DNA of 63,995 bases, the filler included, from Porpidia crustulata (lineage: Eukaryota): the NCBI GenBank assembly GCA_964255105.1. It is 7 parts of 7 records of this genome, joined end to end, with 100 filler letters (N's around TTAATTAATTAA, not from the genome) between each part and the next. Parts side by side here need not be neighbours in the genome. Positions count along the whole stretch, not along the records: positions 18,435 to 27,549 come from CAXUWE010000996.1; 6 more parts are not named here. The stretch is one strand, 5' to 3'. This document shows, piece by piece, positions 9,118 to 55,191 of the stretch (positions within the stretch are counted from its first letter, which is position 1; each line of letters begins with the position of its first letter). Position numbers and translations under genes: made by a program. The notes under the pieces are model-generated. The model was given only the letters and a program-made list of their open reading frames with translations. It was not told where the DNA came from and ran no database searches.

Positions 9118-9217
9118 NNNNNNNNNNNNNNNNNNNNNNNNNNNNNNNNNNNNNNNNNNNNTTAATTAATTAANNNNNNNNNNNNNNNNNNNNNNNNNNN
9201 NNNNNNNNNNNNNNNNN
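9118..9217. other. Artificial contig spacer N44-TTAATTAATTAA-N44
   Basis: Identical 100-nt structure occurs six times and has stop codons in all six frames. Confidence 0.98.
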
Positions 9218-9318: not shown

Positions 9319-12300
9319 CTAAATCGACACGAAAAAACTCCTCTCCCCCTCCTCCGCCTCCACCCGACACCTCTCCACAATCTCATCGGCGCAGCTAATC
9401 CGAATCCTCTCCACCGTCGCCGGGCTCCGCAAACTCAGCACCTCCTCGACCCCGCACCCCTTCCTCGCCGCCTTCAACGCATCCCGGATGGCGAAGAAGA
9501 CGGCACTGCCCATGAACAGCGGCGGCTCGCCGACGCCGCGCGAGCGCTGGATCGTGCGCAGGTGCTCCCACTCGACGTCCTTGAGCAGGCTGACGTGAAA
9601 GCTCTGCGGGATGTCGCGGAAGCCGGGGATCTTATAGGTACCGGGGCCCTTGGTGAAGAGCTGGCCCGAGGCGCGGTGCCAGAGGCTCTCCTCTGTGGTG
9701 AAGAGGCCCTGGCCCTGGACGAAGGCGCCTTCGATCTGGCCGTAGTCGATGGACGGGTTGATGGAGCGGCCGACGTCCATTTTGATGTCGGCGCGCAGGC
9801 AGGTCCAGTCGCCGGTGAGGGTGTCGATTTCGACTTCGGCGGCGGTGACGCCTTGGGTGAAGTAGTAGAACATCTGGCCCGTGTTGGGGCCCCAGACGTA
9901 GCCGATGTCGGGTGTTTTGTAGAAGCCGTTGGCGGAAAGGTTGACGCGGTCAAAGTAGGCGGCTTCGGCGAGTTGTTTCATGGTGGCTTTAGTGCCAAAT
10001 TTCTCTCGATAAGGGGCGAGGCGAGTGTTTAATTGTTCGCAGGCATTATAGATGGCGTAGCCGTTCAAGTCGCTGGAGGCGGAGGCGGCGGTGGAAGAGG
10101 TGTTGGGAACGGTATTGGTCGCTGTTTCGGTGATGTGGACATCGGCGAGTGGGACGGAAAGAGCCTGAGCAGCGATCATGGTCATCTTTGTGTGGAGGCC
10201 TTGACCCATCTCGCAGCCGCCATGGGCGACTAAGACGGAGCCATCGTGGTAGATGTGGACGAGAGCGCCGGCTTGGTTGAGGAAGATTGCGGTGAAGGAT
10301 ATGCCAAATTTGGTGGGGATTATGGCGAGGCCGCGTTTATTCCACTTGTGTTTGGCATTGAAGTCTTCGACAGACTTCCTGCGCTCGGCGTAGTCGCTTT
10401 CAGAGATGACTTGCTTATACATGAGAGGGACATGCCAGTCTTTGAGCTCCTGGTTGAAATGTGTGATTTCGTTGGGTTTATACAAGTTAATTTCACGAAG
10501 CTTTTCGATAGGCATACCCAAATGATCCGCAACTTCTGACATGTACGTTTCCCCAATGAACATCCCTTGTGGCCCGCCAAATCCACGAAAAGCGGTATTG
10601 GAGACGGTATTCGTCTTTGCGATTCGCCCACGAACATGAATATTCGGTATGAGATAACAACCGTCGATGTGGGACAATGCTCTGTCAACGACGGCGCCAC
10701 TCAAGTCTTGGCTCCATCCACCGTTACAAAAGACATCTGCGTCGAGTGCCTGGAGCTTTCCATCCTTGTTGACGGCCACTTTCCACCTTGCCAGGAATGG
10801 ATGTCTTTGGCCAGATGTTACAATGTCCTCATCACGGTTTAGCATACACCGGACAGGCCGTTTAGTCTTCTTTGCGGCAACAGCACATATTGCTGAAAGC
10901 TGAATGGATCGAGTTTCTTTCCCCCCAAACCCTCCGCCAAGACGCTTCACTTTAGATACAATTTTGTTGGCTTGCACGCCGGTAACATTGGCAACATAGG
11001 ACTGCCTAGGCGGATATCAGTAATAGTCAAGTTACCTCTAGAGGCTAGACTCACGTCTCAGTGGGATTCTGTGTGCTACTCCAGACTTCAATCTCTCCAT
11101 CCTCTGGTTTCGGTATTACTACGCATGCATTGGTCTCGAGATAGAAATGCTCCTGCCCACCCATCCGGACTACACCGCTAAAAACGTGATCGGCTGTTCT
11201 GAAAGCACCCTCAGGGTCTCCTTTGTTGATGTAGCGGTAGTGCGGGAAATAGCTCTCTTGAGCGACGGCTTCTTCTATAGTGAATATCGCAGGCAATTCC
11301 TGGTATCTCACCATCACAGCCCGAGCACCAGCTTCAGCATGTGCGGCAGAATCTGCGAGAATCATCCCTATCGGTTGGCCATGACTGAATACCTCATCTA
11401 TTGCGAAGAAAGTTTCATCACAATTTGGAGCACCCCACCAATTGGCCTCTGGGTTAGGTAGATCATGACGATCAACCCAATCAATGACACCTGGCAGATT
11501 CATGGCTGGGAAGACATTGACGTCTAGAATTTTGGCATGAGCTTTACTTGACAGGACCATGACACCGTAGAGCTCATTTTTCTGTGCAGGAATATCGTCG
11601 GTATATTGTGCCTCGCCAGTGCATTGCTTCAGCGCTGCTAGATGTGGATTGGCCTGACCAACAACGCGCTGCTGGTATACTTGCGTGGCGTCATGGTCTT
11701 TCTTTCCTGTGGATATTGCACGTTCGATCTCCCCTTGTACATCTTCATCTACTTCTAAGCCTTCCGCGCGCAATTCCGAGAGAACCTCGTGATAGTACCT
11801 GTAGAAGAACCCCAAAGCAAGCGATTTCCGGTAGGTAGCCATACCACCAGGTACGCCAAAACGTAGGTCAAAGTCTTGGCCTAGAGCATTCATGGTACCT
11901 TCCAATGTCCTGGGGTCAGTCCACTTTTTGCCCTTCAGATACTTCATGGCCTCTTTCGCCATAGTGGTAGTTGCAGCCATTCCACCATATACCAGACTGA
12001 CACTTTCAACCTTATGTCCTTCATCCAAAGAGACACGCAATGCCGCATTAACGATAGCTATATCGTCATCTTTCCGCTTGGCTTGCTTGTAAGCACGCAA
12101 ATATTCTCCTTTCTCCCGAGCCACTGGGATTCGCAAGCTAGCAATAACGGCATCAGGTGGTAATGCAGTCGTTCTGTAGCCTTTGAAGAATTCGGTCATT
12201 GGTATTTCCGTTTCCTTTTCTAGCGACTTTGCTACGAGGAGAGTGTTTGTTACGACGAAAACTGGATTTAGATCTGATATAGGGGACGCAGTGGCAAGAT

Positions 12301-13564
12301 TGCCAGCAGGTGTTCCAACATTGCGAATTTGCCGACCAGCAAAATATCGAATTTGCTTATGGATTGCCGCAAACGGCTGTCCTCGGACTGGACCGTAATG
12401 TTTAATAGCTTTCACACAAATATCTTCAAGATCGGTCAGTACTACATTCCCACCAATTTCAACATAATCATCTTTCAAAGAATATTGCCGTAATTCGGCA
12501 ATGTCTCCGACATAGACTGACGCAGTATAATGCATCCCTTTGAACTTGATTTCAATTTGTGTCTCGGTACTTCCTCCAATGACCTTGGCCGACGGATGTA
12601 CGCTTTTGATTTTGAGCAATTGCTCTAGTGTGACTGGTCTGTACCACTTCTTGCGTTTGTTCCCAAATGCCAAAGGCTTGAATTTGTGATTTCTGAGCGC
12701 AGGAGGAAATATCAGTTGCGTATCTGGATTATACTCGATGAAACCAGGAGGAGTAAAACGTTTGATAGGCTGGTCCTCCTTGTCTTCCTGAGAGCCTTTC
12801 ATACAACAGCCACTTCCTGAAGCACCATTGCCCTTTTCCATACAACAACCACCTCCCCCATTCGCTGTCGATTTACCGCAAGCCTTCTTTGCACTGAAAG
12901 ATTGAGCCGCGTCTAATATAGGCCGATAGCCTGTACATCGACAGAGGTTTCCATCAAAGGCTTCTTCGACATCTACTTCAGACGGGTTTGTATCGTTCCG
13001 CAATAACGCATACAGGCTCTGTTGTAAAGATAAGCTCGATCATCCTTTAGAATAGTCAATTTCATACCATTACTATTCCAGGTGTACAAAAACCGCATTG
13101 GCTACCGTTACTTTTTGCTATACGTTCTTGTGCTGGATGTGGGTTTTTGACATTGCCAATACCCTCCACCGTTATAACATGTTTCCCGTCAACACTTACT
13201 AAAGGAGCCAGACAGGCATTTACAGAGGCATGATAGATTTTGTTCGTTGTCGGGTTTAGCTGTGATACCACCTATATATGATCCCATTAGGACAGTTCGA
13301 GTCCGGTTCGCGATTGAATTGACTAACGACAGTGCAAGCTCCACATCCTCCTTCCGCACACCCAAGCTTGGTGCCGGTTAATCCAATGCCTCGAAGATAT
13401 TCAAGTAGCGTGATCTCAGGGTCAATGGACTCATCAAGTACAACTTTGGTACCATTGAGGTAAAAGCGAAGACCGGAGTCATCGAAAGACTCTGTGACAT
13501 TTTGTAAAGAGAATAGTGAAGATCGAGACACGGCTGGCTCAGGTTCTATAAGTCCAGGAGCCAT
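9319..13564 (-). CDS. hxA: Xanthine dehydrogenase (purine hydroxylase I), about 4 exons
   Basis: Fe-S motifs [26 protein letters not shown] and [15 protein letters not shown] domain [11 protein letters not shown]; Moco domain [21 protein letters not shown] and SRGVGEPPL. Confidence 0.97.
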
Positions 13565-18334: not shown

Positions 18335-18434
18335 NNNNNNNNNNNNNNNNNNNNNNNNNNNNNNNNNNNNNNNNNNNNTTAATTAATTAANNNNNNNNNN
18401 NNNNNNNNNNNNNNNNNNNNNNNNNNNNNNNNNN
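18335..18434. other. Artificial contig spacer
   Basis: N44-TTAATTAATTAA-N44. Confidence 0.98.
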
Positions 18435-18493
18435 AACGCGATTTTTCGTGATTTTCGCGTTTTTGCCGAAGACTTATGCACACTAACTGCGTA
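18435..18493 (-). mobile_element. Possible Tc1/mariner-type transposon terminus at contig edge
   Basis: Reverse complement reads TA-CGCAGTTAGTGTGCATAAGTC, resembling the CAGT..TGCA.TAAGT TIR style. Only one end is visible. Confidence 0.25.
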
Positions 18494-19263
18494 CCCTTGC
18501 TAGCTTGGATTTATAGACCCGTAGGTTAGATCATGTATCAGCACTCAACTTGGCTCGCATGGCTACAACTGACGGCAACAGTCATGTTTCGAGTTCCGCA
18601 TACTTCGCTATAACAGCAAGCAGTCGATGCGAATTGCTAGTATAATTCAGAATTGCTTGGCTGCCTAGCGATCCAAACCGGTTACTGAAACTGCAGAGAT
18701 ATGCAAGATACTGTACGAGCATGCGGCTGGCGATTCATTCTAGTAGACTACAGTATATAGGCCGAAACAAATGTCTCCAAACCCTGGTTGTTGCGCCTAT
18801 AGGCACTGATATTTACCGCATGTTACAAGCGACAACCAGCGCATATCCAAATCTAAGATACAACTGGGCTGGACGACGCGGCAATCTCAAAGTCTTTGAC
18901 TGGCATTTTTCTGCCACATTTTCTGAGCTTTGGTCATATTGAGGAAGCCCTTGCACGGACATCTCGGCAATCATGACAAAAGTACAATGGGAGCTTTAGA
19001 CACCATCGCCTCTCGAGGATTGGCCGGGAGATCTTCATTATTACTGTGATCTGCTTCCTTAAAGCCCCGATTTCCAAGCAAGCCTTTGATCCGTCTAGGC
19101 ACATGCTAGGGATAACACATGGGGTCCTATCAGCCAAATACCGCTTGTAGAGTCTCACCTATGTGTCTGTCTTTACGACGACAATATCGTTCTCCAGCTT
19201 ACACCAGAGGCTTGTACACCCGTCATTTCTCTCGTATTCATTCCTCTCGTATAAGTTTGCTTT

Positions 19264-20150
19264 TCAGTCGACTTCATAGCTGCAGATCGCCATGTGACCT
19301 TCAATGCAAGCCTCATCATCTAAGATGGCATTATGAATTTTTCCGTAAGCCATGCGGATGACCCTGTTGGACGGAACTACTTGGTGGCAATTGATAGAGG
19401 ACCTCCCCACAGTCTGAGCTGTTCCTTGGAATGTACAAGACCAGAATTTTTGGTCAATATGCCCGGAATCTTGCTGGCTCCTAACGCATGATTTGCAATG
19501 AAGTCCGTGGACGAGCTTTCTGGTCTTGCCCTCGAGACGCACTCAAGCAAAAATTGAAAATGCCGTATAACAAAGCAGATCTCCAATCTCTGATTATATA
19601 ATGTTCAAGTCATTACAGCACAGCCGCTGTCACTCGACTGAACAATCGCTACCTCATGTAGCAGCGACTACGGATCCAGTTTTTGTCATCTTCGCCTCCG
19701 GGTCTTAAGATTGTCACGCGTCCTCTAGTAATATTGTCAGAAATATCAGAGCGAATTCATTAACTTGGGCCCTCTAAAAATTTGTTTGCTATTGCTAAGA
19801 TCGCAAGCAGAGTTTTGGTGTGGTTCTCGGCGCAGTATGCGCAGCACTGTTGAGACTTGATGAGGAAAACTAAGCCTTCAACTCGACCGCAGAAGGAACA
19901 TTTTGGATTGCGCAGAGTTCGGTCGATACTTTTCAACAAATTATCCTCTATCCGCCACTTACATAACGCAGCCATCACTTCGGGGACCTGTGGTACCGCT
20001 CTTCTGTATCGAGGTGCCAAATTAACGACGTTGCGGGCAGAATGCTAAGCCATCCTGCAATTCCGTATATCAAGACATGACAAAGTCTTCAGAATACCTA
20101 TCACCACTTCTGTTGGTAGACAACCCAACGTACCGAGAGACGAGCAAGTT
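19264..20150 (-). pseudogene. Decayed F-box protein gene with Cys-rich region
   Basis: SSLGTLGCLPTEVVIGILKTLSCLDIRNCRMA*HSARNVVNLAPRYRRAV...KCSFCG...QQCCAYC; internal stop; end coordinates approximate. Confidence 0.6.
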
Positions 20151-22282
20151 CAAGGCTCTATCGGGGGAGGTCCCAGACTTCGAGGACAGTTTATTCCGCC
20201 AACTTTGGAGAGGCCTTCAGAAGGTTTGGAGATCTTGAGACAATCCGCTGGCGGTGTCTGGGAGAGATATTCCACTATCTGTACATTGATGGGTTCATCA
20301 ATTGTATGACTGCCTCAACTTTTCGAAACGAGAATGAAGTAGCTGCCGAATATGATATTTCCCTTGCTCTACCGAGTCTATGGCTATCGTCCCAGAAGAT
20401 CTATGCCGCTTGTATCCGCGTTCTTCGAATACTAAATGCTAATGTTTGAAGAGGCGTAGCACTTGTATCAATGAAGAAAAAGCTAGAAGACTAAAATCTC
20501 CCAGTAATAGGAACACAGATCACGTTACATGATGCCGAAGGCAATTCGGCGTTGAGCATTACTATTTTCTAGGTGATCACTTACAATTTACTTGCGTGTG
20601 GATAACGATAGCAAACCATCTGTGAGGTATCATCGACGACGTCATCAAAGCCCGTAGTCTGATACTGCCGAAAAGACTCTAAGCATATGGCAAATATTAC
20701 CCAGAAGCTGCCGGAGCTTATTTCCAGTCTCTTTTTATTATCTATTTCATTAGATGTCTAGAGTTCAGTTAAATCCGTCAAATTATCAAGGTCTTAAATC
20801 TTTAGCATACAATTAAATTTCTTTGCTCAAATCTTCCAACAATATAAAAGTAAAGATACTTCTCAAAGAATGATACACTTAAGTAGATAGAGCGACAGCA
20901 GTCCATAGACCTTAGAAAGGTGTCGATATGGCAGAAATATAACAATTGTGAATCATTGTCCTACGCGGGGTTTTTCCTGCACTGATATGATAGAAATATC
21001 TCAAGCTTTGATAAACAGAGCTACTGCTCAAGACGTTTAGGAGCAAGGATTCAAGAATCGTGTACGAGTTCATTCTTCTATAACTCTGAATTCACAATAT
21101 TAATCACATTTATCCTTTCAATTATTTCTATATCTTTCTTATGACGGGAATATCATCATCTCTACTGCGTAAGACGCAAGCAAGTCAAATCTCTTTCAAC
21201 AGAAATCACACCTCCAATCCTTTGCCTCCATATAATTATTCCCCGCAAATTGCTCTCAACCATTCGCCGCTACACTCGAGGACAAGTCTCCGGGGCCGAA
21301 CAAAAACAGAAGAATTAGCCCCTGAGCAAGCCAGCTTTCATACACCCATATCAATGCTCTAAGAAATACTTGCCATGTACGCAAACCGTGCAGACCTCCT
21401 ATCTGCCGACCATCTATCTCAGCTCCGCGCTCCAAACTCAACAATCAATCTCCCAAATCGCCAACTCCCCAAAATCCCCTCAGACAGCACCTTCACCCAG
21501 CCAGCCCGCGAAAACGTCCTTGCCGCTCCATATCTTCAATCCCACAATCACAAGATCAGCCAAAAACGCTAATTGTCCACGGAAACCACGCTTTTTCCAA
21601 CCTGCCGATCTCAAGAAATCCGATAGCTTCATTGCCCTCCGCAGTCTTGTCGCTCAAACCCAGCTATCTACTCCTGTCTTGTTCCCCAATACCCCCCCCT
21701 TAAAGCTTCCCCCCACACACACACTAGCGTATACATTCCACCTGGACGACAATTAATACATCTATGAAATATCTATGCTGATATATACGTTCTCTCGGAA
21801 CCTTCTGTGAAATTTTTTCAAAACCGCGCAGTCTTCCATGATCCTAGCAGCGGAGGGAGAAAATGTGAGAATAGGTACCTGTTAGCTCGATGTCAGTACC
21901 AAAGCCAGAGTTTCGTTATTTTCTCTGTATACAGAACATTTGAAAAGAATGATACGAGACCCTTGATGCATTGATATTGATGCTACGAAGAGGTTGAGGG
22001 TAGGCTTATATGTGCTACGTTACGGAGCATTAAGGGGGCTTTGATGTTGGCGTACGAGAGGAGGAAAGGCAGGGTTAGCGGTTCAACTATTACAAGTGCG
22101 TATGCGCGGTACTTGAGAAGGGCCAGGAAAAACTATGGTAGGGAAGTGCTAAGCAAATGTATCTCGTTTTCGAGCTACAAGAGTCTTAGGTCTTTAGTGA
22201 CCGTCTATGACCAACGCACTGACCAAGCAAAATGGTATGATGCGCGCCTCCTCTAGCCAATTCTTTCCATTCTCATTTTCCT

Positions 22283-25049
22283 TCAGTGATCCGGCTCAAA
22301 AAAATCAACAGCTGCATTACTTTCCCTTACACCCAGTCCACGCGGCGAACAATAGACATGAACCGCATCTTCCTACGCACCCAGTCTCCGCAGAAATTCG
22401 CTCTTCTAATTGAGTCTCAAAGATAGACCGATACGTCTTCTGAAGCATTCAAAGATGCAGACCGTTCATGTTGCGCACGGCGTGAAGCTCGGACGGAGCT
22501 GCGCTACCAAACGTCAGTCATTCGGGGTCGGAAGCCTTTACAGCCTCAATGTATGAGGGGTGGTAGCTTCGATGCCGTTGGAGGTGATCTCAGGAAATTC
22601 CAGGGATCGTGTTGCTTGAGAGTCATATCTTTTTACGAACTGCACAAGGACCATGAGAGCCTACTTATTTTCTAGTTGACCCTGGGCGTCAAAGTATCGA
22701 CGATGCGACATGTTGCGCCATGGCTTTAATTTCAGACACATAGAGCTAGTTTGCGTTTCGGTTGGCCTGCCAATCCTGAACGCGAGCATCGCACTCCTCC
22801 TGGATTTCCTGTAGCACTGGCTTGCCTTCTGGTAGGCCTATAATCTTGATACCTTAGCGTTGGACATGGCGGATTCTGCGGCCCGCATTGTGGTTAAATT
22901 CGGCCACACTGCCATTCGGATCGACGCGTTCCTCCGCAGTACAAGCGAGTGTTTTCCAGCCAAAAATTACTGCAAGATTTCCTTCATCTGGCTTCCCACG
23001 AGGACCCATACAGGCCTCAAATACTTTTCCTTTTTCAACCATATGAGAAATGCAGTAGTAACCACAGCGTACTAAATTGGGTCACAGAGAGGGTTTCTTG
23101 CAAATATGGCATAGGCATCCGTTGATTTGTAAGGAATGGCCACTTCAGTCTCCATGTGACGCCATAGTTTGTATCGATCATCGATCCACGATGCGTTCAT
23201 TGCGTTACTATGAATGGCAATCAAACTCTTTGACGGCTGTAAATGGTCTTGGCTGTCGGCCGACCTTCCATACCCCTACGGTGGATTGGCTGTGCTATCA
23301 TAACTATTGCGAAGGTCAGGGCCTGATGGCTAAGCCGAAAATCTTTTGGAATCTCGAGGATAAGGAGACGCCAGTCAAATGATTCCTAGCATGAGCATGG
23401 GCATAACAAGTCTTTCCAGTCCAATTCCAGCACCTGCGTGGGTTGGAGTGCCTACTTGGAGCCCTTCCATGTAGTCCACGATTGTGCAATTCCTAGCGCG
23501 AGCATCTTTTCCTCAAGCAGCTTTGAATCGTGGATCCTCTGATCGTTTGTCGGTATTTCTTGATCACGCAAAAAGATATCGAATGGGTTACTGACTCCAT
23601 CGTCTTTAGGGTCATGCATAGTGTAACCAATCTCGGTGACGCCGAGAGCTTGCCAAGTGTATAATAGTCGGCTCTGTATTTCTTCTTGATCACCTCGCCC
23701 AACCGGATCTCATCTCTCACGGGCAAATCGCTCCTTTTCGAGGGTGGATTGCCGTATTCATCCGGCCATCCAGACTCCCATGGCATTGGGACCCCGTCGA
23801 CAAACGATATCTTTGATGTTTCCAACTTGAATCAAAATAGATCATCATCGGGATAACGTTGCCTGACGATCTGCACTTCGCGACCGAAGCGATCGTAGAT
23901 ACACTGGAATGCGTGTTTAGAAGTTGCATCAATCAGTTGTGACGCTTCATGATCGTGTTCCTCGATTAACATTTCCAAAATGAATCCAGTGTACTCTGTA
24001 GAATGCCGATGAGTGTTATTATTCCTGCACGAAAAATGGGGTTAATAAATCGACACTTTCGAAATCTGTAGCGATGCACATTTGTTTTGCTAGTTGCAGG
24101 CTTGGAGCGAGAAAACCAGGTCGCTCAAAGTCATCACGCAGTAGAACGCTTGAGCCGGACTCAATGGCTCTAGCCTGCAAGTATGGGATAGAGTTCCACG
24201 AAGTCATTAAAGGTCAAATACGAGCGAAAGAGGCTACACACGTCAAAGTTGATGGGGAACACAGCTTGCGGAACGAGAATCCTCAGATCAACCATGCAAT
24301 CTGACAGTGTCACTTGTTCTGATATCTTCTCCTTTGATATCTCAGCTTCGTATGGAATGAAGCGGATCGATTTCTCTTTCCTCTTGATTACATTGATACC
24401 TCGAATCAATATTTCTAGACTGTGGATAGAGCAGCCTCCGATGGGCACACCTCCATACTGTGAGGTGCCTTTCGTATTGACGATGAAACCTGTTGATATA
24501 CACTCTACTGACTGAAGATGAGCCCAGCGCTAAGCTTGCGAGTAGCGTGGACGGAGGCTCGAAGCGTGATTGACGGACCAGAGTCCCAGTCCAAGATAGA
24601 CTAGATGCATCAATGATCTTCCATGCTCAACCCTGAATTCCTCGACTGGATAAGCGATAGACTTCTATATCGCCTACGGAGTTATATGGCTATATGCTTA
24701 TCCTTCTCCTCCACCGTGATACAGGCTTATTCTACTTCTCGTTTCGTCTGATTCGGGCTGCATGACTGTTCTCCGTGGCAACTATCTTCTGCTGGATCTT
24801 ACTCAGTAGATTGGAGCGGTCGATAATTACTTCGGCGTTTTTGACATTGGAGTGGACTCGTAGGTTAAAAAGGTGCTCGCGTAATGATGACGTAGCTTCC
24901 TTATTCTTGCCGTCTTCGCTCCAGCCTGTCGGCAGATGTTGCTCTTTCTGTTCAGGGCTAAGCGACTTATCTTTTTGGCAAGCCGTTCCCCATCTATACA
25001 ACAACTGCTTTAGATTCAAATCGTGCTCTCGGCAATTATATGCTGACAT
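22283..25049 (-). pseudogene. erdS: Ergosteryl-3beta-O-aspartate synthase pseudogene (AspRS fused to DUF2156 transferase)
   Basis: Frameshifted AspRS motifs: ITLRASVHATRKLSAGLIF (OB fold), FLAPSLQLAKQMCIATDFE, RDEIRLGEVIKKKY, NPFDIFLRDQEI..QRIHD, PTHAGAGIGLERLVM, PRDSK. These continue into DUF2156-type text: NASWIDDRYKLWRH, NPLCDP, GWKTLACTAEERVDP, PWRNMSHRRYF, LTFGS, ending AVDFFEPDH*. Many stops and indels. Confidence 0.88.
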
Positions 25050-25427
25050 TTACGGGCCGAATACTTTCGTGGCGAGCAATTGTCATTGGCATTGACTCTC
25101 ACAGATCTTATTCGACTTGAAAAACGGTCAGAAGCCTCAAGATAGAATGACGCTCTGGCTTCCGTCAAGTAAAGTGTCAACCCACGGGAAATAAGGTAGT
25201 AAGCTTCTCTGACCACAGTACACTTGTCATTAGTATCCGGGATTGTAGATCACAGATGTTAATCTGTCCAACACATCTAGGCTACCTCGAAGAAGCTCAA
25301 ACTCATAGTCCTATACGTTCACTTCAAGAGAAAAGAGTATTGGGATTCAGATAAAGACACCGGGATAGCTCATCCTCTGGGCCTGCATTCCACATCGTTT
25401 TCTACACGACCAAGGTCCCGATATAAT

Positions 25428-26430
25428 ATGGCCGAGAAGAAATGGACCTTGCATCATCAAGCCATGTGATGGCGAACATCGGCCAAGATTGGAGCTTATC
25501 TGCATACGTTATCCAACCCAAAGCCTCTAAGGTCATTCTTAATACGATCTTTCCCCGCCTCCATTATAAGAAAGAGTGTTGGATCTATAATAAAGCTGCA
25601 CTTCTACGTTCCAAGAGATCGTGATGAACAATGTAAGGGTGGATACCGATATCCAACAATGTCAACCTACATGGTGGTGGGTTCACTTTGGGTGCTCCGA
25701 CCGACGAGCGCGCTGGGTCTGCGTCATGCTGGAAGATCTGTTTGCCGTTTCAGTTAGCATTGGAAACAATCTGGCGCCCTAATATCCTTAACCAGCTGCG
25801 GCAGAAGATGGCGCCGTTTCACCTGGCTACTCAGGCCAGCGAACATGGTATTGACTGTACCAGAACGATGCTGACTGGGAACCTAGCTTTTACAATTGCA
25901 CCGAAACTTAATGTTTACCTGTAATCTCAAGTTTACAACCCGTTCAGTGGGCAGAGTACCAAAAAACCGTGGCAAAAAGCGCTATACTACGGGTTGTCCA
26001 GATTGTATTGTTGTATCCTAATATGGACCATTCAATCTCTCACGAGCATCGCCTTGGTATCAGTAAATGCCCCGAGAAAAACCTAGCGGCATTCCTTAAC
26101 AACCTCTTCGACGGATTTATCTGTCATCTCAAGACGAAGGCAACTCGCTTTTTGTCTCACCAGCCATCGCGCCTGATAATCTACTCAAAAATTGCCTTAC
26201 CGCATGATATATAATATATACCTGTGAGTAGGAAATGTTGTACGAACAGGGTACAAAGCCTACCCGTCGGTTGAAAGGTTCGGGAAAGCGTGTGGACTTT
26301 GTTTCGATCGAGGGAAAGGCTCATGCTTTTAACAAACCACCAAACCAATTTTATGCCGACCCTTAGCTCGATATACTTTATCGAGCTGCGTGATTATCAG
26401 ACGAAAGTTCAAAGGGCAAGGGACCGGTAA
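25428..26430 (+). pseudogene. erdH: Ergosteryl-aspartate hydrolase pseudogene (HSL-like alpha/beta hydrolase), divergent from erdS
   Basis: MAEKKWTLHHQAM*WR.., IKLHFYVP, VNLHGGGFTLG (HGGGF 25670-25684), LAP*YP*PAAAEDG, RTMLTGNLAFT, YPNMD, NLFD, TCE*EML, IEGKAHAFNK. Head-to-head with erdS. Confidence 0.8.
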
Positions 26431-27549
26431 AAGTCTATCTCAGATTTAATTCTTAATAACTTGCTTTTATAACACGTCTTTCCAACCCAAGCGGTAGCAG
26501 CATTGATTATCTACCGTACCTACACGCCAAGCTTTCCACGACCACAGTCCTTGCTTGGCCTCCCATAGTTTACTTTATCACTCAAGCTCTGCGGAAGAGC
26601 GCAACTTACGCTCATTCAGATCAGTACGTCCGAACATCTTAAACCGGCGCCAGGATAGTGGGGAGGAGCTTCTCTTAGATCGTTTGGTTGACTTCCAGAT
26701 GCGGAGGGCATTATACAACCTTTTAGTTCGCTTTGGAAAGGACATTATAGGGGTAGGTAGAGTGTTCCATATGTATTTCCATTATTTATGAAGCCGTCCA
26801 AAACACAGCCCTTACTGTACAGCCTCCACATTTCCCGACTGTCTCATTCTTTTCTGCAAAACCCGCTATAAATTTCCTCTTACTGTCGTCATACGATTCC
26901 CCGGTTTACGCACGATGAACATGATCAAACTGTCCTTACTCTTGTATTCTACTTACAAGTTGATTAGCTCTCAGACTATCCAACTTGCTACACCCTGAAT
27001 CCTCAATCATCATCCACACAAGAGATTTTCCAATAGGGTGTAGATATCCTATTCGCAATTTTACCGTCTCCTTCAGGAAAGTCCAATCCTCCGATTGTTC
27101 AATTCACTTTCTCGGAATGATCACTTATCATGGTAAAAAGCAAGTCTATCGGTTCCGCCTTTCCTCCGCTTCTCCATTTACCTGCATCCCATCCTAATCC
27201 ATACATACAAAGCCAAAATTGATATACACATCTAATCCAACTCAAAGCTCCATCCCTTAAATCCACCATTCAGGAATCTTAGTTTCCATTCGAGCCTATA
27301 CTAGATTTTCATAATCCTCGTATCCCATCTTCGAGCTTCTGGGAAAGTAGCACAGAAACATCACGATACTGTACTAGACCGCCAAATTCGACTCTCATAA
27401 GTCCCTGCTCTAATAACTCCTGCCAGCCTCGAAGCTTAACTTCACTCCCCATCCCCGGTTTCTCCTGTCATGTCATCACATTCCCATGGCTTACTAATCT
27501 CCTTCCTCTTGCTAACCCCCTCCTCTCCCCTCCATGCCATCACATACCC

Positions 27550-27649
27550 NNNNNNNNNNNNNNNNNNNNNNNNNNNNNNNNNNNNNNNNNNNNTTAATTA
27601 ATTAANNNNNNNNNNNNNNNNNNNNNNNNNNNNNNNNNNNNNNNNNNNN
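27550..27649. other. Artificial contig spacer
   Basis: N44-TTAATTAATTAA-N44. Confidence 0.98.
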
Positions 27650-30094
27650 CTTGACACCCGTCCTGCTTCGCCGTCGATAATCCTACTCGCCTTATTAATA
27701 TTTGTGCTGGTGAGAGCAGAAAGGGAGCACTTACTAATCTCACTGAATTTAGGCTATGGGAGATGCTCCACGCCTCAGGTAAGTCTATGATTGAGTACTC
27801 CCTTCGAGAGTCATGGATACATATGGTGGTCCAATTATAGAGTAGCGCTCGAACTGGAGAATTAACGAAGGGATTGAAATAGCACCCATCTGTCGTTCAT
27901 GACTGTTTTCTTGCAGACTTCGCATCAGGATCTCTCTCTCCTACATCTTCCCTTCACAACGAGATCTTAGGAATCTCTTTTTCTTAAATTTTCTCCCATT
28001 TCCTACGCAATACGCGAATCATGTTCCACATTTCACTCTATGTCTATACCACCAGAAAGTACGGCCGGAATTTGGGCTTCAAGAGCCTCATAGATTGGAT
28101 CGGGGTCAGTCGACCTCGTCCAATCCACCGAGAAGCTGATGCCCATGATGAAGTCAATCCCAAGGACGAATCCTAGGCGGGATGTGATGAAGTTCTTCCC
28201 GTGTTCTACACATCATGTACTTGGTTTATAAAGTGTCCATTATACCTCGAAGCCACGATCAGCGCTCGCAAACTTTGCCCACTTGAAGTCATACCCATCA
28301 ACGCGGGACCCATTCGATCCCACTTCCATATCGTACTCTCCTATCTGACTCAATGTGAAATTGTACCTAAGCATTCCTCAGCTGTTCCATTGAGAATAAG
28401 AGAGAGAGAGGCAATAGTCAAGGTAGTAAATATCTAATCAACGCAGGGTTTTCATACAAAATGTGAAAAAAAACATAACCCTTGATGCCGGCCACTTCTC
28501 GTGTCAATGCCAATCCACCATATCCTCATCACGCTGTCACACAAGATCTATACCTTTCAATTTATGCTTATTGCGTGAGACAACATGCCTCTTTCGTGCA
28601 GGGTCTCGGGAAACGGTTCTGTATGCGTAGATTGATAGCTTTCTGAGCATTGGAAAACATCTAGTCACCTGGTCATATTGCAATGCACAATCAACAGCAT
28701 CAGTTAAACTTCTGGAGTCGAGGTGGATCAGGGATCAATGAGAATGAATGGATAGGTATGGAGAAGTTGACCGGTCACCTGACTTGATTTGGGTAACGGT
28801 CTTGTGTCAATCGTTCTTAGGACACTTGTGAACTACTACAGATTATGAGTTGAGTGGAGTTTTGACTTGATTAATGCTATCGTTGAGAGAATTACCTTAT
28901 GTATCACAGTCCATCTAACCACCATGGTTTTGATGTCGTGATTGTCAAGTCATTATCGACACGCACCACAAAATTCCGCGGCTGGATATCGAAGAAGTCG
29001 TACGAGATATTGCTGTGGCATTTCGAGCAGAAAAAGATGCGCCGTCTCCATCAATGATGACCGCGCCCGAGCAAGAACTGCGAAAAGACAGCAAAGGTCT
29101 GGTACTAAGCTTGTGGGTGTCTGAGCAGGCGTATCTATGACGGCTATGGCTTTCCCGATTCATACACTTCTAGCTCGCTACTTCAGATTGCCAATTATCA
29201 TTGGCATTGATTATCCCTTCGCTCAAAGTGCCGACGATGGTGAAGAAAAATCTACTCGATTGTTTGATGCTATGCCGAGGGTCCTATTCGAGAGCCTGGT
29301 CATTGGTATTGGGTTGCCGTTTGATATTGGATACAGCTTTGGCTCGGCGCTAGCCTATCCGTATACTTGCTAGGCCAATCGCAATTATCTCGACAGGACA
29401 GGGAGATGTCTCTTTTACTTGCTTCGAGGATTCTGCTTGTATTCTCAGATTACTCGTATTCCTCGTACATGGCCTTTTCACGCTCGAGGTCTTGAGCTTT
29501 GAAGAGCATCCAAGAATCCCGTGAAGCGGTCCCAGCCGATCTAGTAAATCGAACCGCTTTCTTCTGATGTACTAATGTTGTGACTTGTGAGCATCTAGAT
29601 CTTGAAAATGACGCAACGCTTTGGAGAACATTCTTTCGAGACGGCTTTTGGTTTCGGCGCGAGACCTGTCGACCCGAAGCGTAAGCCTGCTCGCCGAAAT
29701 ATGGGATACGTGTATCTCTTAATTTGCTGTGTTGGTATCGTGTATTTCAATATCATAGCTTTTCGAATTGGCTTCTCGCTACAAGAAGGGCTTTTGCGCA
29801 TTTCCGCAATTACACTATCTCGACTTGCACAGAACTCCGTAGGGCAGTGCTTATCGGACGATAGCAAGACTATATTCCCTTAAGACCTAGGGCATATAGT
29901 TCCAGTCGAATGAAATCACTTCGGACGGGTATTTTAGGGCGTTTGGATCAGGGTCCATTTGTCGTTCGACCTCCATGTGAAAGCTAGTCTTGTGAAACTG
30001 CAAAGGGACGGCTTGAAGGATTGTAGCATATCAGGAGTCTTAGGAGTTGTAACAGCAAGATTGCTTCAATACTCGGTGCATAAATTCATCATTT

Positions 30095-32359: not shown

Positions 32360-33780
32360 ATGACCACTCTACCGAATAACATGGACAATCTCCAGCGAAG
32401 CGCTCAAGCCGATTATGATGATTCTGATTGGGAATACGAATATCATGAGATTGAGAAAGAGGTTACCGACTACTTGCTATTACGCCGATATGCAATACTG
32501 ACTTCATGTAGACCTATTATGTGACGATCGACATCTCCTCGGAATCCGCAACAATAAGACCAAAGAAAAGGTCCAAGACTACGGGCGGTCCGTCCGAACC
32601 AACACCAAAGGCGCCTAAAGTTACCTTCGAAGCTCCTCCTAACAGCGGTTTACACAATCGTTCTCAAGCCCCATCGCGGACAAGTTGGGTTAGCGGGAAA
32701 ATCACTTCAACGCCCCACGTTCAGACGTCAGATTCAGAAGCTGTAGTATCTGGGATCGAACATGCTGGAGAGATTGGCACTGCGGTGGATGAACCCGTAC
32801 TGCGAGCCAAGGTCTCTGTACCTGTGGAGAACAATGAAGGCCCCACGATTGTGAATGCTTCCTCCACACTTGATACTGAGCCTGCCTCGGTCACTGCCCT
32901 GCTCACGAACATCCAATCAAGGCCAACTGCTTCACAAACAACTGGAAATGTCTCGGTCTTGGAAGAAGCTGGATCTAAAGCTGGGAACATCCCGATTGAG
33001 ATTGTTTCAAGGAGCACCAGAGAATCAGTGACTGAGGGCTCAACCACGCCAGAACCCGACGAGCAAATCCAAATTCTTGACCTTCACACTACTCATCCCC
33101 TCATCTCCTTTCAGAAGCAACTCTATTCTTGTGCCTGGACCACCACGATCGGCACTGACCTTCTCCTGACTCCTCCCAGTATCGCCTTCTCCGATCCTCT
33201 GCTCAAACACACGACTGCATTTAATATCCTCGCAGCATCGGGCATCAAAATGTTAGGTCGCCCAGTCCGCCCAATTGCAAAGCAAGAGGCACGGTTCAGC
33301 AGTCGAAAACATGGGACGCCGCTATCTGATTGTCTCCCAAACATTAGTAGCGAACCCGAGGAAGCTGCCCGCAAACCCAAAGCTTTTACCATTCCTGTCG
33401 ATACTGGCTCCTCCATTGGTCGCCAGAACCAAGCCCATTTTCTGGAGAGACTTATGGCTATCAAAGCTGCCAAGGGTGAAAAGGACAGTGTGACTGTCTA
33501 CGCACAAAAGACTTTTACAGGAACAGGATGGCGGACTAAGCAGCGGGCAGACCGTGAAGCCATATCAAGTGACGAAGATGGATCCGGCAATGGTAATCAA
33601 GACGGGCCGTCAATTCAAGTGACTCCTAGAGGGTCTCTGAAGCCGAGGGTAAGGAGGAGAATGGCTAGAGGTTCAGGGAAACCGAGGGTCAAATCGGGCC
33701 TTTTCAGAGACTACACGCCCAGGTCGTGGGATGGGGCAGAGGCAATAAATGGGGAAGACAATTCGAGCGCTAAGAACTAG
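32360..33780 (+). CDS. TFIIIC triple-barrel (subunit 6-like) domain protein, 2 exons
   Basis: DSDWEYEY..E|TYYVTIDIS (intron 32462-32511); QIQILDLHTTHPLISFQKQLYSCAWTTTIGTDLL; QAHFLERLMAIKAAKGEKD. Confidence 0.78.
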
Positions 33781-36736: not shown

Positions 36737-36836
36737 NNNNNNNNNNNNNNNNNNNNNNNNNNNNNNNNNNNNNNNNNNNNTTAATTAATTAANNNNNNNN
36801 NNNNNNNNNNNNNNNNNNNNNNNNNNNNNNNNNNNN
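36737..36836. other. Artificial contig spacer
   Basis: N44-TTAATTAATTAA-N44. Confidence 0.98.
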
Positions 36837-38554: not shown

Positions 38555-41500
38555 ATGGACGAGCTTTCGGATTTCCAAATTGGCCAAACAATAGAGCTTC
38601 AAGACGGCCGCAGTGCGACTGTCCGGTATGTCGGTAGTGCCCACTTTGCTGGGGGAGATTGGGTTGGAGTGGAACTGGATGATGCTACCGGCAAAAATGA
38701 TGGGGAAGTACAAGGCGAGCGATACTTCGAGTGTAGGTCCGGCCACGGGATGTTCGTACGCCCTGGGGTCACACGGATTGTTGACCAACCGAAAGAGAAG
38801 CCAACTGGACGCACTGAGGGAAAAGCCAACGGTACAGCGACCAGGAGCCGACCGCAGAGCATGGCTTCTGGAGGGTTCAGGATACAAAATGGCATGGATC
38901 CAGCCGCAATAAAGCGACAGAGCATCAATGCTGGCAGTCCTACCCCAGGAACAAAGGTAGGGCCGCCAGTGAGGCTTTTGGGAGTATGTAGACAATGATT
39001 CAAGAAGAACGTTTGGCTCATGTGAAGTAGTCTCCTAGTAAATCTCCTACCAAGCAATTGGGGTCCATCGCATCATCACGAAGCTCTACACCGCGCAACA
39101 CGGCACCCCCATCAGCAAACAAAATAGGAACAACTACTATGAAGTCCCAGCGAACATCCATGGGTCCTCCTACCTTCTCTTCGAACTCTAGAACATCACG
39201 GCAGTCGATCGCAGGTACAATGAATGGATTAGCTAGGGCTCCCAGTCAAACCTCTTCCAATTCTTCTCAGCCACCATTGAATAGGCAATCGATAAAACCT
39301 GGTAGACTGAAAGACATCGGCCCTGTCAGTGCCAAGAGAGAGGAAAGCCCAGAATCGCCGCCCGAATCCCTGAGTCCGGCGTTACTATCACCTCCAGTCA
39401 TTGACGGACAGGACGACGGGTCTATGAAAGACTTACACTCGCCACTATCATTTCAGTCCCTGGGCAGTAACGCACCCACGTTGACCCCACCGGAAACGTC
39501 ACGTGGGAGATCGCCTCCCTCGAAAACCCAGCGAGCCCCACCCATTGCCGCTACACATAGAGAAGTGGAAGATCTAAAGACCAAACTTAAGGTGATGGAG
39601 AAAAAGAGAACGGAGGATCGAGAAAAGCTCAAGACATTGGAGAAGGTGCAATCCGAACGAGATAAGTTTGAAGGGATAATCCAGAAGCTTCAATCCAAAT
39701 ACCAGCCACAACAGCAAGAGATGACAGATCTTAAGAAACGACTGACAGAGGAAGAGGCCAAGGTACAGGCTTTGGAGGCACAGCAGGCGGAGAATGACAC
39801 CATGGGTGAAATGGCGACGTTAGATAAGGAGATGGCGGAGGAGACTGTAGAGTCATTAAAGACGGAATTGGATGCACTTCGCCAGAAGAACCAAGAGATG
39901 GAACTCGAGCTCGAGATACTGAAAGAAGAGAACCAGGAGCTTGGAACCGAGATGAGCCCCGAGGAAAAAGCCAGTCAGGGTTGGTTGCAGATGGAGAGGA
40001 GCAACGAACGTTTGCGGGAGGCTCTGATGCGTCTTCGAGATATAACGCAGGAACAAGAATTGGACTTGAAGCAACAGGTGCAAGAACTCGAGAAGGATGT
40101 TCAAGATTTACGAAGTGTCAAGGAGCAATACTCGCAAACGAAAGCCAAATTGGTCCACTCAGAATCTATACTTGAAGATCTCAGGCAACAGTTGGACACG
40201 ACCCTTGGTGCTGAGGAAATGATTGAGGAGTTAACTGACAAGAATATGGCGCTCAACGAACAAGTCGATAAGCTAAGAGCAACTATCGAAGATCTAGAAA
40301 GCTTGAAGGAATTAAACGATGAGCTCGATCTCAATCATACCGAGACCGAGAAGCAGCTACAAGACGAAATCGACTTCAACGAATCAGTCATTGCGGAAAA
40401 TGCTAGGAAAAGTGCTCTCAAAGATGAAACTGTCCAGGACCTCGAGTACACAGTCTCTCGTTTCCGTGACCTTGTTGCAAACATGCAGAGCGACCTTGAA
40501 GATATGAGGGCTTCACAGCAAATCACCGAGACTGAAGCGAACGATATGACTCATCGTTCGAAAGCCATGATGGACCTGAATCTTCGCCTGCAGGCCTCAG
40601 CGTCCAAGGCGCAAGTCAAGGCCATTGACTTGGAATTGAGGAAAATGGAATCCCAAGAGTCTTCCGAACATCTAGCTATAGTACAGCTATTTCTCCCTGA
40701 GCAGTTCAAGATCGAAAGAGATTCCATCCGTGCCCTTCTTCGGTTTAAGCGAATCAGATTCAAGGCCAATCTGATGCACGACCTCATCAGGGAACGCCTA
40801 ACCGGCCAACAGACTCCGGGACATGAGGAGGATATCTTTGCTTGCTGTGAACTTTTGGAGAAGCTGTGCTGGATATCTGCCACATGTGACCGGTTTGCAT
40901 GTTCTGTCCAGACCTGCAGCCTGGAAGCATTCCTGAAGCTGGAAGGTGCCTTGTATGACGCTGAGCCGGTGGAGCGTGCTTTCAATGGATGGATTGAGGC
41001 TCTGAAGAGGGACGATCTGAAAGAAGGCCAATGCGCCCAGGAACTTCAGCGGTCTATTGCCTTGATGGCACACCTTGCGGAAATTCATATTCCTGAAGGT
41101 CTCGAGCGATTTGCTGATGACATTCACATGCGTGCTTCCATGATGCAAACCCACCTTGAGAGCGCTACTTCAGCTCTATCTCACATCAAGATAATATCGC
41201 AGACAAGGTTACCCACGCCTGGTGATATCGAGGTGGATGATGATATGGAACCTAGTGGGTTTCTCCAAAAGGTCGATGCTCTAATTTCACAGACTCGGAG
41301 TGCAAAGGTCGTCACTAGCAAAGCGATTCGCGAACTCGAGGAATTAAGATCACGCTCATTGACGCTTGACCCCTCTACGCTGGCTACCATTGAGCAGTCA
41401 CAGAATCTGACATCTGATTTTGCTTTGTCTACACGTACTGCAGGGGTCTCTGTCGCCCGCCTTATGAACGAAGAAGGTCGAACCATACCCTTCACCTTTT

Positions 41501-42600
41501 CCGAAATAGCTCATGCCATTACGCCTTCTGATACCACACCTTTATCAGACCTGTCTACTAAACTCCAGAATACCTTTAGCCAATTACAGACTTTCTACAA
41601 TCTAACGAATAGCCTCTCCCAAACCATCGAGTTCTCTTCTCCACCGACTCCACCACCTTGGGAGGTCCTTGCTGAGAATCTTCATGTCGCTTCTACCACA
41701 TCAGTCTCGCATGAGACAGAAATGCTGCGTCTAAAAGGCGAAGCGGTAGAGAAGAATACTGCCCTCGCCATGAAGGACAAGCTAGTCGAAGAGATGAGCG
41801 TCAAGGTTGAGGTGCTTGAGAAGCGTGTGAGTGAATCGGGTGGCCGAAAGGAGAAGGTCAGAGAGCTTGAAACGGTTGCGGAAACGGCCAGGTTAAAAGA
41901 AAAGGAACTCATCAGCAGGCTCACACGAGCCCAGAACTCTCTCCGTGAACTTGAGACTGAGCGGGAGACTTGGCTAGATGTGTCCCAAGCTACTACTACT
42001 CAGGCAAATGGCCATGTCCATCTACCTCCTAGCGGAGAAATTACGTCCGAGTCTGCTCTTTTCGAAATCGCCACCTTGAAATCCGAAATCTCGACTCTGC
42101 AATCGTCCATCCGCTTCCTTCGGTCGCAATCCCACACAAGCAACTTGTTGGCCTCGCTCTCCTTCCTATCCACCCCCATTGCAACCCCGCAGCCCGCTGG
42201 TCCAACGCTTGCACAACAAGAAGCGCAGGATGTACTGAAGGAGATGCTGGGGATTATTACAAACGACGCCAACAGGATCGTGCATTTAAAGGAGATGAAG
42301 AAAGAGGAGCGTTTAGCATGGCGACCCGTGAAAGAAAAGAGCAGCTGGAAGGCGGGAAGGATGAGGGAGGAGTGGGAAGGATGGCGAGACTGGATGGATA
42401 GTCTGGGGAAAGAAGTGACAAGGGCGGAGGCAAGGAGGACTGTTGCTGGACGCCATGCAAGCAGCAATGGCGATGCCTTGGCCCGGTCGCAGGTGCGGTT
42501 ACCGGAACGGGACCGAGGAAAGATAGGGGACGTCAGGGAGCTGAAGATTGTGGGACCAGGGGAGTGGGATGATGTGAGGGAAAGACTTGGCATTGCATAG
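38555..42600 (+). CDS. nudM: Dynactin subunit p150Glued, 2 exons
   Basis: CAP-Gly motif WVGVELDDATGKNDGEVQG; coiled coils; EMATLDKEMAEE; LGAEEMIEELTDKN; KAIDLELR. Intron 38984-39030. Confidence 0.95.
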
Positions 42601-45914: not shown

Positions 45915-46014
45915 NNNNNNNNNNNNNNNNNNNNNNNNNNNNNNNNNNNNNNNNNNNNTTAATTAATTAANNNNNNNNNNNNNNNNNNNNNNNNNNNNNN
46001 NNNNNNNNNNNNNN
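45915..46014. other. Artificial contig spacer
   Basis: N44-TTAATTAATTAA-N44. Confidence 0.98.
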
Positions 46015-55091: not shown

Positions 55092-55191
55092 NNNNNNNNN
55101 NNNNNNNNNNNNNNNNNNNNNNNNNNNNNNNNNNNTTAATTAATTAANNNNNNNNNNNNNNNNNNNNNNNNNNNNNNNNNNNNNNNNNNNN
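55092..55191. other. Artificial contig spacer
   Basis: N44-TTAATTAATTAA-N44. Confidence 0.98.

Follow-up and report, generated by a model that had tools for sequence, protein, structure and literature searches.

Decayed erdS and erdH genes in an assembly of Porpidia crustulata, a remnant of the fungal sterol-aspartylation system

The window analyzed here is a stretch of 63,995 bases from the genome assembly of Porpidia crustulata, and one of its contigs carries the remains of erdS and erdH. In Aspergillus fumigatus, ErdS is described as an ergosteryl-3beta-O-L-aspartate synthase (PMC7334510, PMC13219428), and ErdH is described as hydrolyzing the ErdS product, ergosteryl-aspartate (Erg-Asp) (PMC7334510). 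Both genes at the Porpidia locus are pseudogenes, and neither is able to make protein. The contig that bears them (18435..27549, 9115 bp, with an artificial linker on either side) contains no stop-to-stop open reading frame (ORF) of at least 150 amino acids (aa); an initial annotation of the locus had noticed the lack of a long ORF. ORF-based annotation would call the contig empty and, as that annotation foresaw, would miss the pair.

Results

The erdS pseudogene is a fusion that joins an aspartyl-tRNA synthetase (AspRS) to a DUF2156/aminoacyl-tRNA transferase (ATT) domain and lies at full length on the minus strand (22283..25049), from a possible ATG at 25047-25049 to a terminal stop at 22283-22285. 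Its class II AspRS catalytic core (23351..24298, minus strand) corresponds to the PF00152 residues 252-576 of P0004, the ErdS of Psora testacea. Motif 3, GAGIGLER, is preserved at 23411-23434, and the motif-2 region is frameshifted (FRA!NNNTHRH, ~24003-24030). The DUF2156/ATT domain (22413..23203, minus strand) corresponds to the PF09924 residues 625-889 of P0004 and has stops and frameshifts inside it. On the plus strand, the erdH pseudogene (25428..26449) is a hormone-sensitive-lipase-type alpha/beta hydrolase fold-3 gene that keeps its ATG at 25428-25430 and has its stop at 26447-26449. A divergent intergenic spacer of 378 bp (25050..25427) separates the two. The initial annotation had drawn the same head-to-head arrangement, and its start at 22283, its spacer, and its HGGGF motif hold; its end at 26430 was slightly short, given the position of the erdH stop.

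Identification of erdS came from comparison with structures and with related proteins. Three minus-strand read-through frames (22200-25300) were compared with the PDB, and the best matches were 9W9E/9W9F/9W9G (E values of 5.6e-67, 1.2e-15, and 6.6e-57), which are described as A. fumigatus ErdS structures determined by cryo-EM (PMC13219428). The ErdS alignments extend over both the synthetase and the C-terminal transferase domain (chain residues 437-861), switching between frames, and the minus-strand AspRS-DUF2156 fusion named in the initial annotation is indeed erdS. Canonical yeast AspRS (1EOV/1ASY) gave E values of 4.4e-14, about 3e-11, and 1.5e-15 against the three frames. The annotation had been prepared to abandon erdS if canonical DPS1 matched best and DUF2156 was not matched; instead, ErdS matched best, and the transferase domain is matched by 22286-23200.

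Relatives of the relic were sought among proteins and in metagenomes. A word-seeded search of 5.8 billion proteins, covering proteins of 568-1808 aa, with the transferase part as the query returned 6 proteins, all 6 of which carry PF00152 and PF09924. The best was the 933-aa protein of Psora testacea, P0004, which is intact and has PF00152, PF09924, and PF01336. When the 6 relatives were compared with the window by tBLASTn, matches were confined to 22245-24529, in three frames. A metagenome scan gave 80 loci, 4 of which encode a full two-domain ErdS (L001, L002, L016, and L062). The closest locus, L001, is 68% identical to the window in nucleotides over erdS and 64% over erdH. An intact Abhydrolase_3 gene divergently adjoins erdS in both of the related loci for which sufficient upstream sequence is available (L001 and L016), and the L001 hydrolase is an intact protein of 348 aa (PF07859, E of 4e-42) with the triad Ser156/Asp278/His308. 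The ORFs of L016, L002, and L062 gave no match in the window outside the erdS/erdH pair. Wider synteny is uninformative at this distance, as L016 and L001 have only the pair in common.

The reading frame of erdS is broken throughout; its stops include a TGA at 23832-23834 and a TAG at 23276-23278. With a frameshift-aware protein-to-DNA aligner written for this analysis, residues 178-954 of L001 ErdS align to 24567..22286 over 754 codons, of which 424 are identical (56.2%), with 11 in-frame stops and 10 frameshifts. The Psora testacea protein aligns over 739 codons, 367 of them identical (49.7%), with 11 stops and 9 frameshifts. Neither alignment (L001 178-954 and P0004 172-933) is interrupted by large gaps, and the PF09924 span of P0004, 625-889, is taken in. 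For the low-complexity N-terminus (177 codons), the alignment is weak and extends to 25016 (score of 127; the highest of 20 shuffles scored 104), with a further ~3 stops and ~4 frameshifts. We conclude that the erdS relic is a pseudogene of the ErdS family and not a working member of it.

Domain searches with the relic's own fragments returned little. Among raw stop-to-stop fragments searched against Pfam, PF00152 was found on 2 of 23 on the minus strand, and nothing was matched on the plus strand (0 of 14). A protein homologue search with a 112-aa fragment likewise gave no match. None of the window's own frames reached PF09924 directly in Pfam, and the DUF2156 assignment therefore comes from alignment to ErdS proteins that bear PF09924. 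Two other identities were considered for the relic and rejected. A canonical AspRS of the DPS1 type ends after motif 3, and the relic has ~350 further codons homologous to ErdS beyond that motif. ErgS is a free-standing DUF2156 protein, the Erg-Gly synthase (PMC8913301), and in the relic the AspRS part runs directly into the DUF2156 part.

The erdH relic is broken to a similar degree and has also lost catalytic residues. Residues 1-347 of the 348 in L001 ErdH align to 25428..26437 over 332 codons, 195 of them identical (58.7%), with 5 stops and 8 frameshifts. The HGGGF motif is at 25670-25684, and this homology to the divergent L001 neighbor bears out the initial annotation, which had called an HGGGF alpha/beta hydrolase here and named it erdH. 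An in-frame deletion of five codons, located within 25865-25891, has taken out the GFSAG nucleophile motif. At 26223-26240, a stop precedes the position of the catalytic Asp, where Glu is now encoded, and the catalytic His is retained (26313-26330), such that a Ser-Asp-His triad is not found. One window frame matches PF07859 at an E value of 2e-4, below the Pfam cutoff. The HGGGF frame (P0011) had no match in the PDB and none in an exhaustive representative search over 1.84 billion proteins. Thus, erdH is recognized only through its intact counterpart in L001, because its read-through frames are too broken.

A third relic lies on the same contig. An F-box-like decayed gene occupies 19811..20173 on the minus strand, possibly extending out to 19210-20266, and is interrupted in frame by a TAG (20045-20047). 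It is 37% identical over 122 aa to an F-box ORF (PF00646) of L001 (E of 8e-19), and the homology fades past ~120 residues. The relic is colinear with that ORF, which is downstream of erdS in L001, and its stop density is similar to that of erdS and erdH, on few codons.

Both members of the pair are full of stops and indels, as the initial annotation had said. TAA, TAG, and TGA are all present as in-frame stops, and there are 18 frame changes by 1 or 2 nucleotides across erdS and erdH. The pair cannot be rescued by any genetic code, intron, or error model, because all three stops are used, homology runs through them, the 18 frameshifts must be accommodated, GFSAG is deleted, and the catalytic Asp has become Glu. 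In a quick maximum-likelihood tree search (LG+G4, 11 rows, 766 columns, canonical AspRS left out) with Shimodaira-Hasegawa-like approximate likelihood ratio test (SH-aLRT) values as the only support, the relic sits inside the ErdS sequences as sister to L001 (SH-aLRT of 99), with Psora testacea as the next branch (100). The end branch of the relic is 0.71 changes per site versus 0.08 for L001, or ~9 times longer. When Psora testacea is taken as the outgroup over 730 sites, 197 changes are found in the window alone versus 35 in L001 alone. Moreover, six intact homologues all agree at 217 sites; the window departs from the shared residue at 71 of these (67 in the window alone and 4 with L001 too), and L001 alone departs at 2.

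The relic seems to have spent most of its separate history as a working gene. Differences from L001 amount to 0.54 at third positions versus 0.22 at second positions, and synonymous divergence (dS) is ~2.35, which is saturated. The excess at third positions, together with the saturated dS, indicates that the gene stayed functional for the greater part of the period after its divergence from L001 and that loss came later. The ratio of nonsynonymous divergence (dN) to dS between the window and L001 is 0.12, a value that mostly reflects the long functional phase. By standard codon arithmetic, neutral substitutions since release from selection would come to ~0.18 per site from the fraction of invariant sites changed and ~0.12 from stop density, or roughly 0.12-0.2.

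The two genes decayed together, within the resolution of the data and as the initial annotation had claimed. The dN value versus L001 is 0.287 for erdS and 0.290 for erdH, and second-position differences are 0.220 and 0.217, respectively. Disabling lesions number 21 in 754 codons of erdS and 13 in 332 codons of erdH, and the 13 of 34 that fall in erdH are compatible with equal densities (binomial P of 0.35). Repeat-induced point mutation (RIP), which is indicated by TpA/ApT above ~0.89, (CpA+TpG)/(ApC+GpT) below ~1.03, and low GC, was considered as the cause of decay and rejected. The TA/AT and (CA+TG)/(AC+GT) indices are 0.63 and 1.35 for erdS, at a GC content of 0.475, and 0.84 and 1.16 for erdH, at a GC content of 0.459, and these values are like those of the rest of the window. 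As the RIP indices are normal, we attribute decay to ordinary drift.

Judged by its genes, the source of the window is a lichen-forming fungus of the Lecanoromycetes. The dynactin gene on the fifth piece of the window (39031-42600) has named relatives that are all Lecanoromycetes, at 50-58% identity, among them Alectoria, Cornicularia, Lepraria, Pseudocyphellaria, Lecanora, Xylographa, and Psora; further relatives are at 73-76%. The placement of the erdS relic with Psora testacea agrees.

The window is an artificial join of seven separate contigs, with six linker blocks of 100 bases of the form N44-TTAATTAATTAA-N44 between them (9118-9217, 18335-18434, 27550-27649, 36737-36836, 45915-46014, and 55092-55191). 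The pieces measure 9117, 9117, 9115, 9087, 9078, 9077, and at least 8804 bases, in order of descending size. The database entry for the window's dynactin places it on a contig of 9078 bases, in agreement with the fifth piece. Adjacency across linkers is not genomic, and genes on other pieces are therefore not neighbors of the erdS and erdH relics, which lie on the third. The other contigs have clean ORFs, up to 1189 aa. None of the 44 ORFs of at least 150 aa in the window lies within 18391-30094, and 20000-29000 holds short stop-to-stop ORFs only. A single 11.7-kb gene desert (18.4-30.1 kb) flanked by xanthine dehydrogenase and Usp-like genes was considered and dropped, as the linkers place these on different contigs. 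The xanthine dehydrogenase/aldehyde oxidase gene (9319-13039, minus strand) appears intact, in two long exons with 2Fe-2S, FAD-binding, and molybdopterin domains. A TFIIIC subunit gene (32512-33780) and a P450 gene (62641-63693) also lie on contigs other than that of the relics.

The sequence of the locus was the same in a second assembly. A 5750-bp contig in the Logan assembly of a public run (X1) spans 21753-27502 with neither gaps nor differences; the run is probably from the same sample and thus represents a second assembler, not a second specimen. Logan contigs stop near both borders of 18435..27549. Two other runs of the same study (X2 and X3) gave no match to the window at 80% likeness. 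Apart from the artificial linkers, no repeats were found in the window, and no tRNA genes were found there.

On the relic contig, ~3 kb (20200-22280 and 26450-27549) is without a recognizable coding remnant. In a Pfam scan of 65 fragments of at least 50 aa from the remainder of this contig and the start of the next, none scored above the cutoff (a weak DUF3931 match had an E value of 0.004), and no transposon relic was seen. Positions 21000-22000 have a strong excess of C over G (GC skew of -0.31), and their frames are of low complexity and rich in Pro, Ser, and Thr. The interval of L001 equivalent to the blank stretch carries a PAN-domain gene that is unmatched in the window.

Discussion

Why erdS and erdH died at this locus can be explained in more than one way, and the initial annotation had allowed for either loss in place or a dead duplicate. 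This lineage probably lost the Erg-Asp cycle through decay of the genes at their ancestral position, and we consider that likelier than the death of a duplicate. Selection on erdS and erdH would have ceased more or less simultaneously, with neutral drift by ordinary mutation thereafter. Once erdS was dead, erdH would have been left without a substrate and may have decayed too. Loss is supported by a 2020 survey in which the Lecanoromycetes are reported to be without a complete ErdS and fungi without erdS are reported to be without erdH as well (PMC7334510); the supplement text of that survey gives no list of the Lecanoromycetes sampled. Moreover, the order erdH<->erdS->F-box is common to the relic contig and L001. 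Finally, no ErdS closer than that of Psora testacea was found in the protein search, the set of which includes the proteins of this assembly (P0013).

Several points weigh against loss. An intact pair could lie elsewhere in the genome, as the evidence consists of one contig and the search of a protein set, and the combination of a word-seeded search over 568-1808 aa with a fragmented assembly could miss a split gene. The gene order shared with L001 cannot separate loss from duplication. Timing is rough owing to the saturation of synonymous sites, and the counts of frameshifts vary with the penalties of our aligner. Moreover, the relic contig is without an intact gene and the F-box-like neighbor has decayed as well, a pattern that a dead segmental duplicate would explain no less well than a targeted loss would. 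Perhaps duplication of a block with erdH, erdS, and the F-box gene produced a redundant copy that decayed, while a working pair was kept elsewhere. In favor of this, every one of the three recognizable genes on the 9115-bp contig is decayed, the decay of erdS and erdH is equal, and the stop density of the F-box relic is comparable. Repeats in many ascomycetes are expected to attract RIP, however, and the relics bear no RIP signature. F-box genes turn over quickly, and the third relic may be a coincidence. A working pair elsewhere is also at odds with the protein search, in which the assembly's own proteins yielded no ErdS closer than that of Psora testacea, and with the reported lack of ErdS and ErdH in Lecanoromycetes (PMC7334510). 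We therefore regard a dead segmental duplicate as rather unlikely.

Two further explanations were weighed. Lichen samples contain several fungi, and because the window is a set of unlinked contigs from a fragmented assembly, the relics might derive from a second fungus in the sample, such as a lichen-inhabiting one, and be silent on this lineage. The relic ErdS, however, groups with that of Psora testacea and with L001, in the same class as the dynactin contig, and the GC content and dinucleotide indices of the relics match those of the other contigs. Thus, a foreign origin is improbable. Alternatively, errors in the sequence, introns, or an unusual genetic code might mask a working pair, in favor of which there are only the retained erdH ATG and erdS terminal stop. 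Homology, however, continues straight through the stops, all three kinds of stop codon are used, and the frame changes 18 times. Moreover, the motif of the catalytic Ser of ErdH is deleted in frame, the second assembly is identical, and the other contigs have long clean ORFs. We give almost no credence to a masked working pair.

If loss of the cycle in this lineage is true, the relics are physical evidence of sterol aspartylation disappearing in place, with its genes decaying together and without RIP. The published absence is also refined. The intact gene of Psora testacea indicates that the Lecanoromycetes are not uniformly without ErdS and that its distribution is patchy; in one relative, no more than a single mutation separates the gene from an intact state, and a fossil is found here. 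That relative is L001, in which the erdS gene (954 codons) has a single in-frame TAG (L001 12275-12277) at a position that is Leu in other ErdS proteins and Gln in the window. The rest of L001 erdS is intact and slowly evolving, and the adjoining erdH is intact. The L001 TAG may mark a gene inactivated very recently, but it may also be polymorphic or, L001 being a metagenome contig, a fault of assembly. Full-text literature searches brought up no account of erdS or erdH pseudogenes, and the word "pseudogene" occurs 0 times in the available text of PMC7334510, PMC8913301, and PMC13219428.

We speculate, with more doubt than confidence, that the Erg-Asp cycle is still in the course of being lost, repeatedly and independently, among the Lecanoromycetes, each time with erdS going before erdH. 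A candidate series could be Psora testacea, with ErdS intact; L001, with one nonsense codon in erdS and an intact erdH; and the window, with both genes dead for long and decayed to the same extent. The order would be forced, because a hydrolase lost first would let Erg-Asp pile up. In Aspergillus, erdH deletions are reported to have been unobtainable, and an excess of Erg-Asp is reported to be more harmful than its absence (2026, PMC13219428). The erdS-first series depends on one stop codon, read from the metagenome contig L001. If the series is true, lichen fungi offer a ready comparative panel for the role of Erg-Asp, such as its link to conidiation and hyphal growth. The initial annotation had hoped that a natural knockout would help define what Erg-Asp does. 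As such a knockout the locus is of restricted use, as lichen fungi are difficult to culture, deletions made in the laboratory are already available in Aspergillus, Neurospora, and Magnaporthe, and the pathway is probably, but not certainly, lost.

The relics resemble known systems in architecture and differ from them in integrity. Like A. fumigatus ErdS, the erdS relic has the anticodon-binding and catalytic parts of AspRS followed by the DUF2156/ATT domain on a single strand, and a "SW.D" stretch is still readable in its transferase part that corresponds, as counted on our own alignment, to S644/W645/D647 of the published protein (PMC13219428). Unlike A. fumigatus ErdS, the relic has at least 11 stops and 10 frameshifts, and no protein is possible. 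The AspRS core of canonical cytosolic AspRS (yeast DPS1; PDB 1ASZ/1EOV) is homologous to that of the relic, but ErdS surpasses the canonical enzyme by some 40-50 orders of magnitude in E, and the canonical enzyme stops short of the transferase part.

The second gene compares in the same way. Like the ErdH genes of A. fumigatus and Neurospora crassa, the erdH relic is divergent beside erdS and has the HGGGF/GxSxG hormone-sensitive-lipase-type fold (PF07859). Unlike them, it has its nucleophile motif deleted, Glu in place of the catalytic Asp, 5 stops, and 8 frameshifts. A. fumigatus ErdH is described as having the triad S153/D277/H307 (PMC7334510), and the triad spacing of L001 ErdH is nearly the same, as judged from the published positions. 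L001 itself is the nearest likeness, a divergent pair with a downstream F-box gene in identical order and orientation. It differs from the window in that its erdH is intact, its erdS has one TAG, its spacer is 880 bp versus 378 bp, and its erdS and F-box genes are 6.4 kb apart versus 2.1 kb. The system is known, and its absence from the class had already been noted. What the Porpidia contig holds is a gene-loss remnant of the published ErdS/ErdH system.

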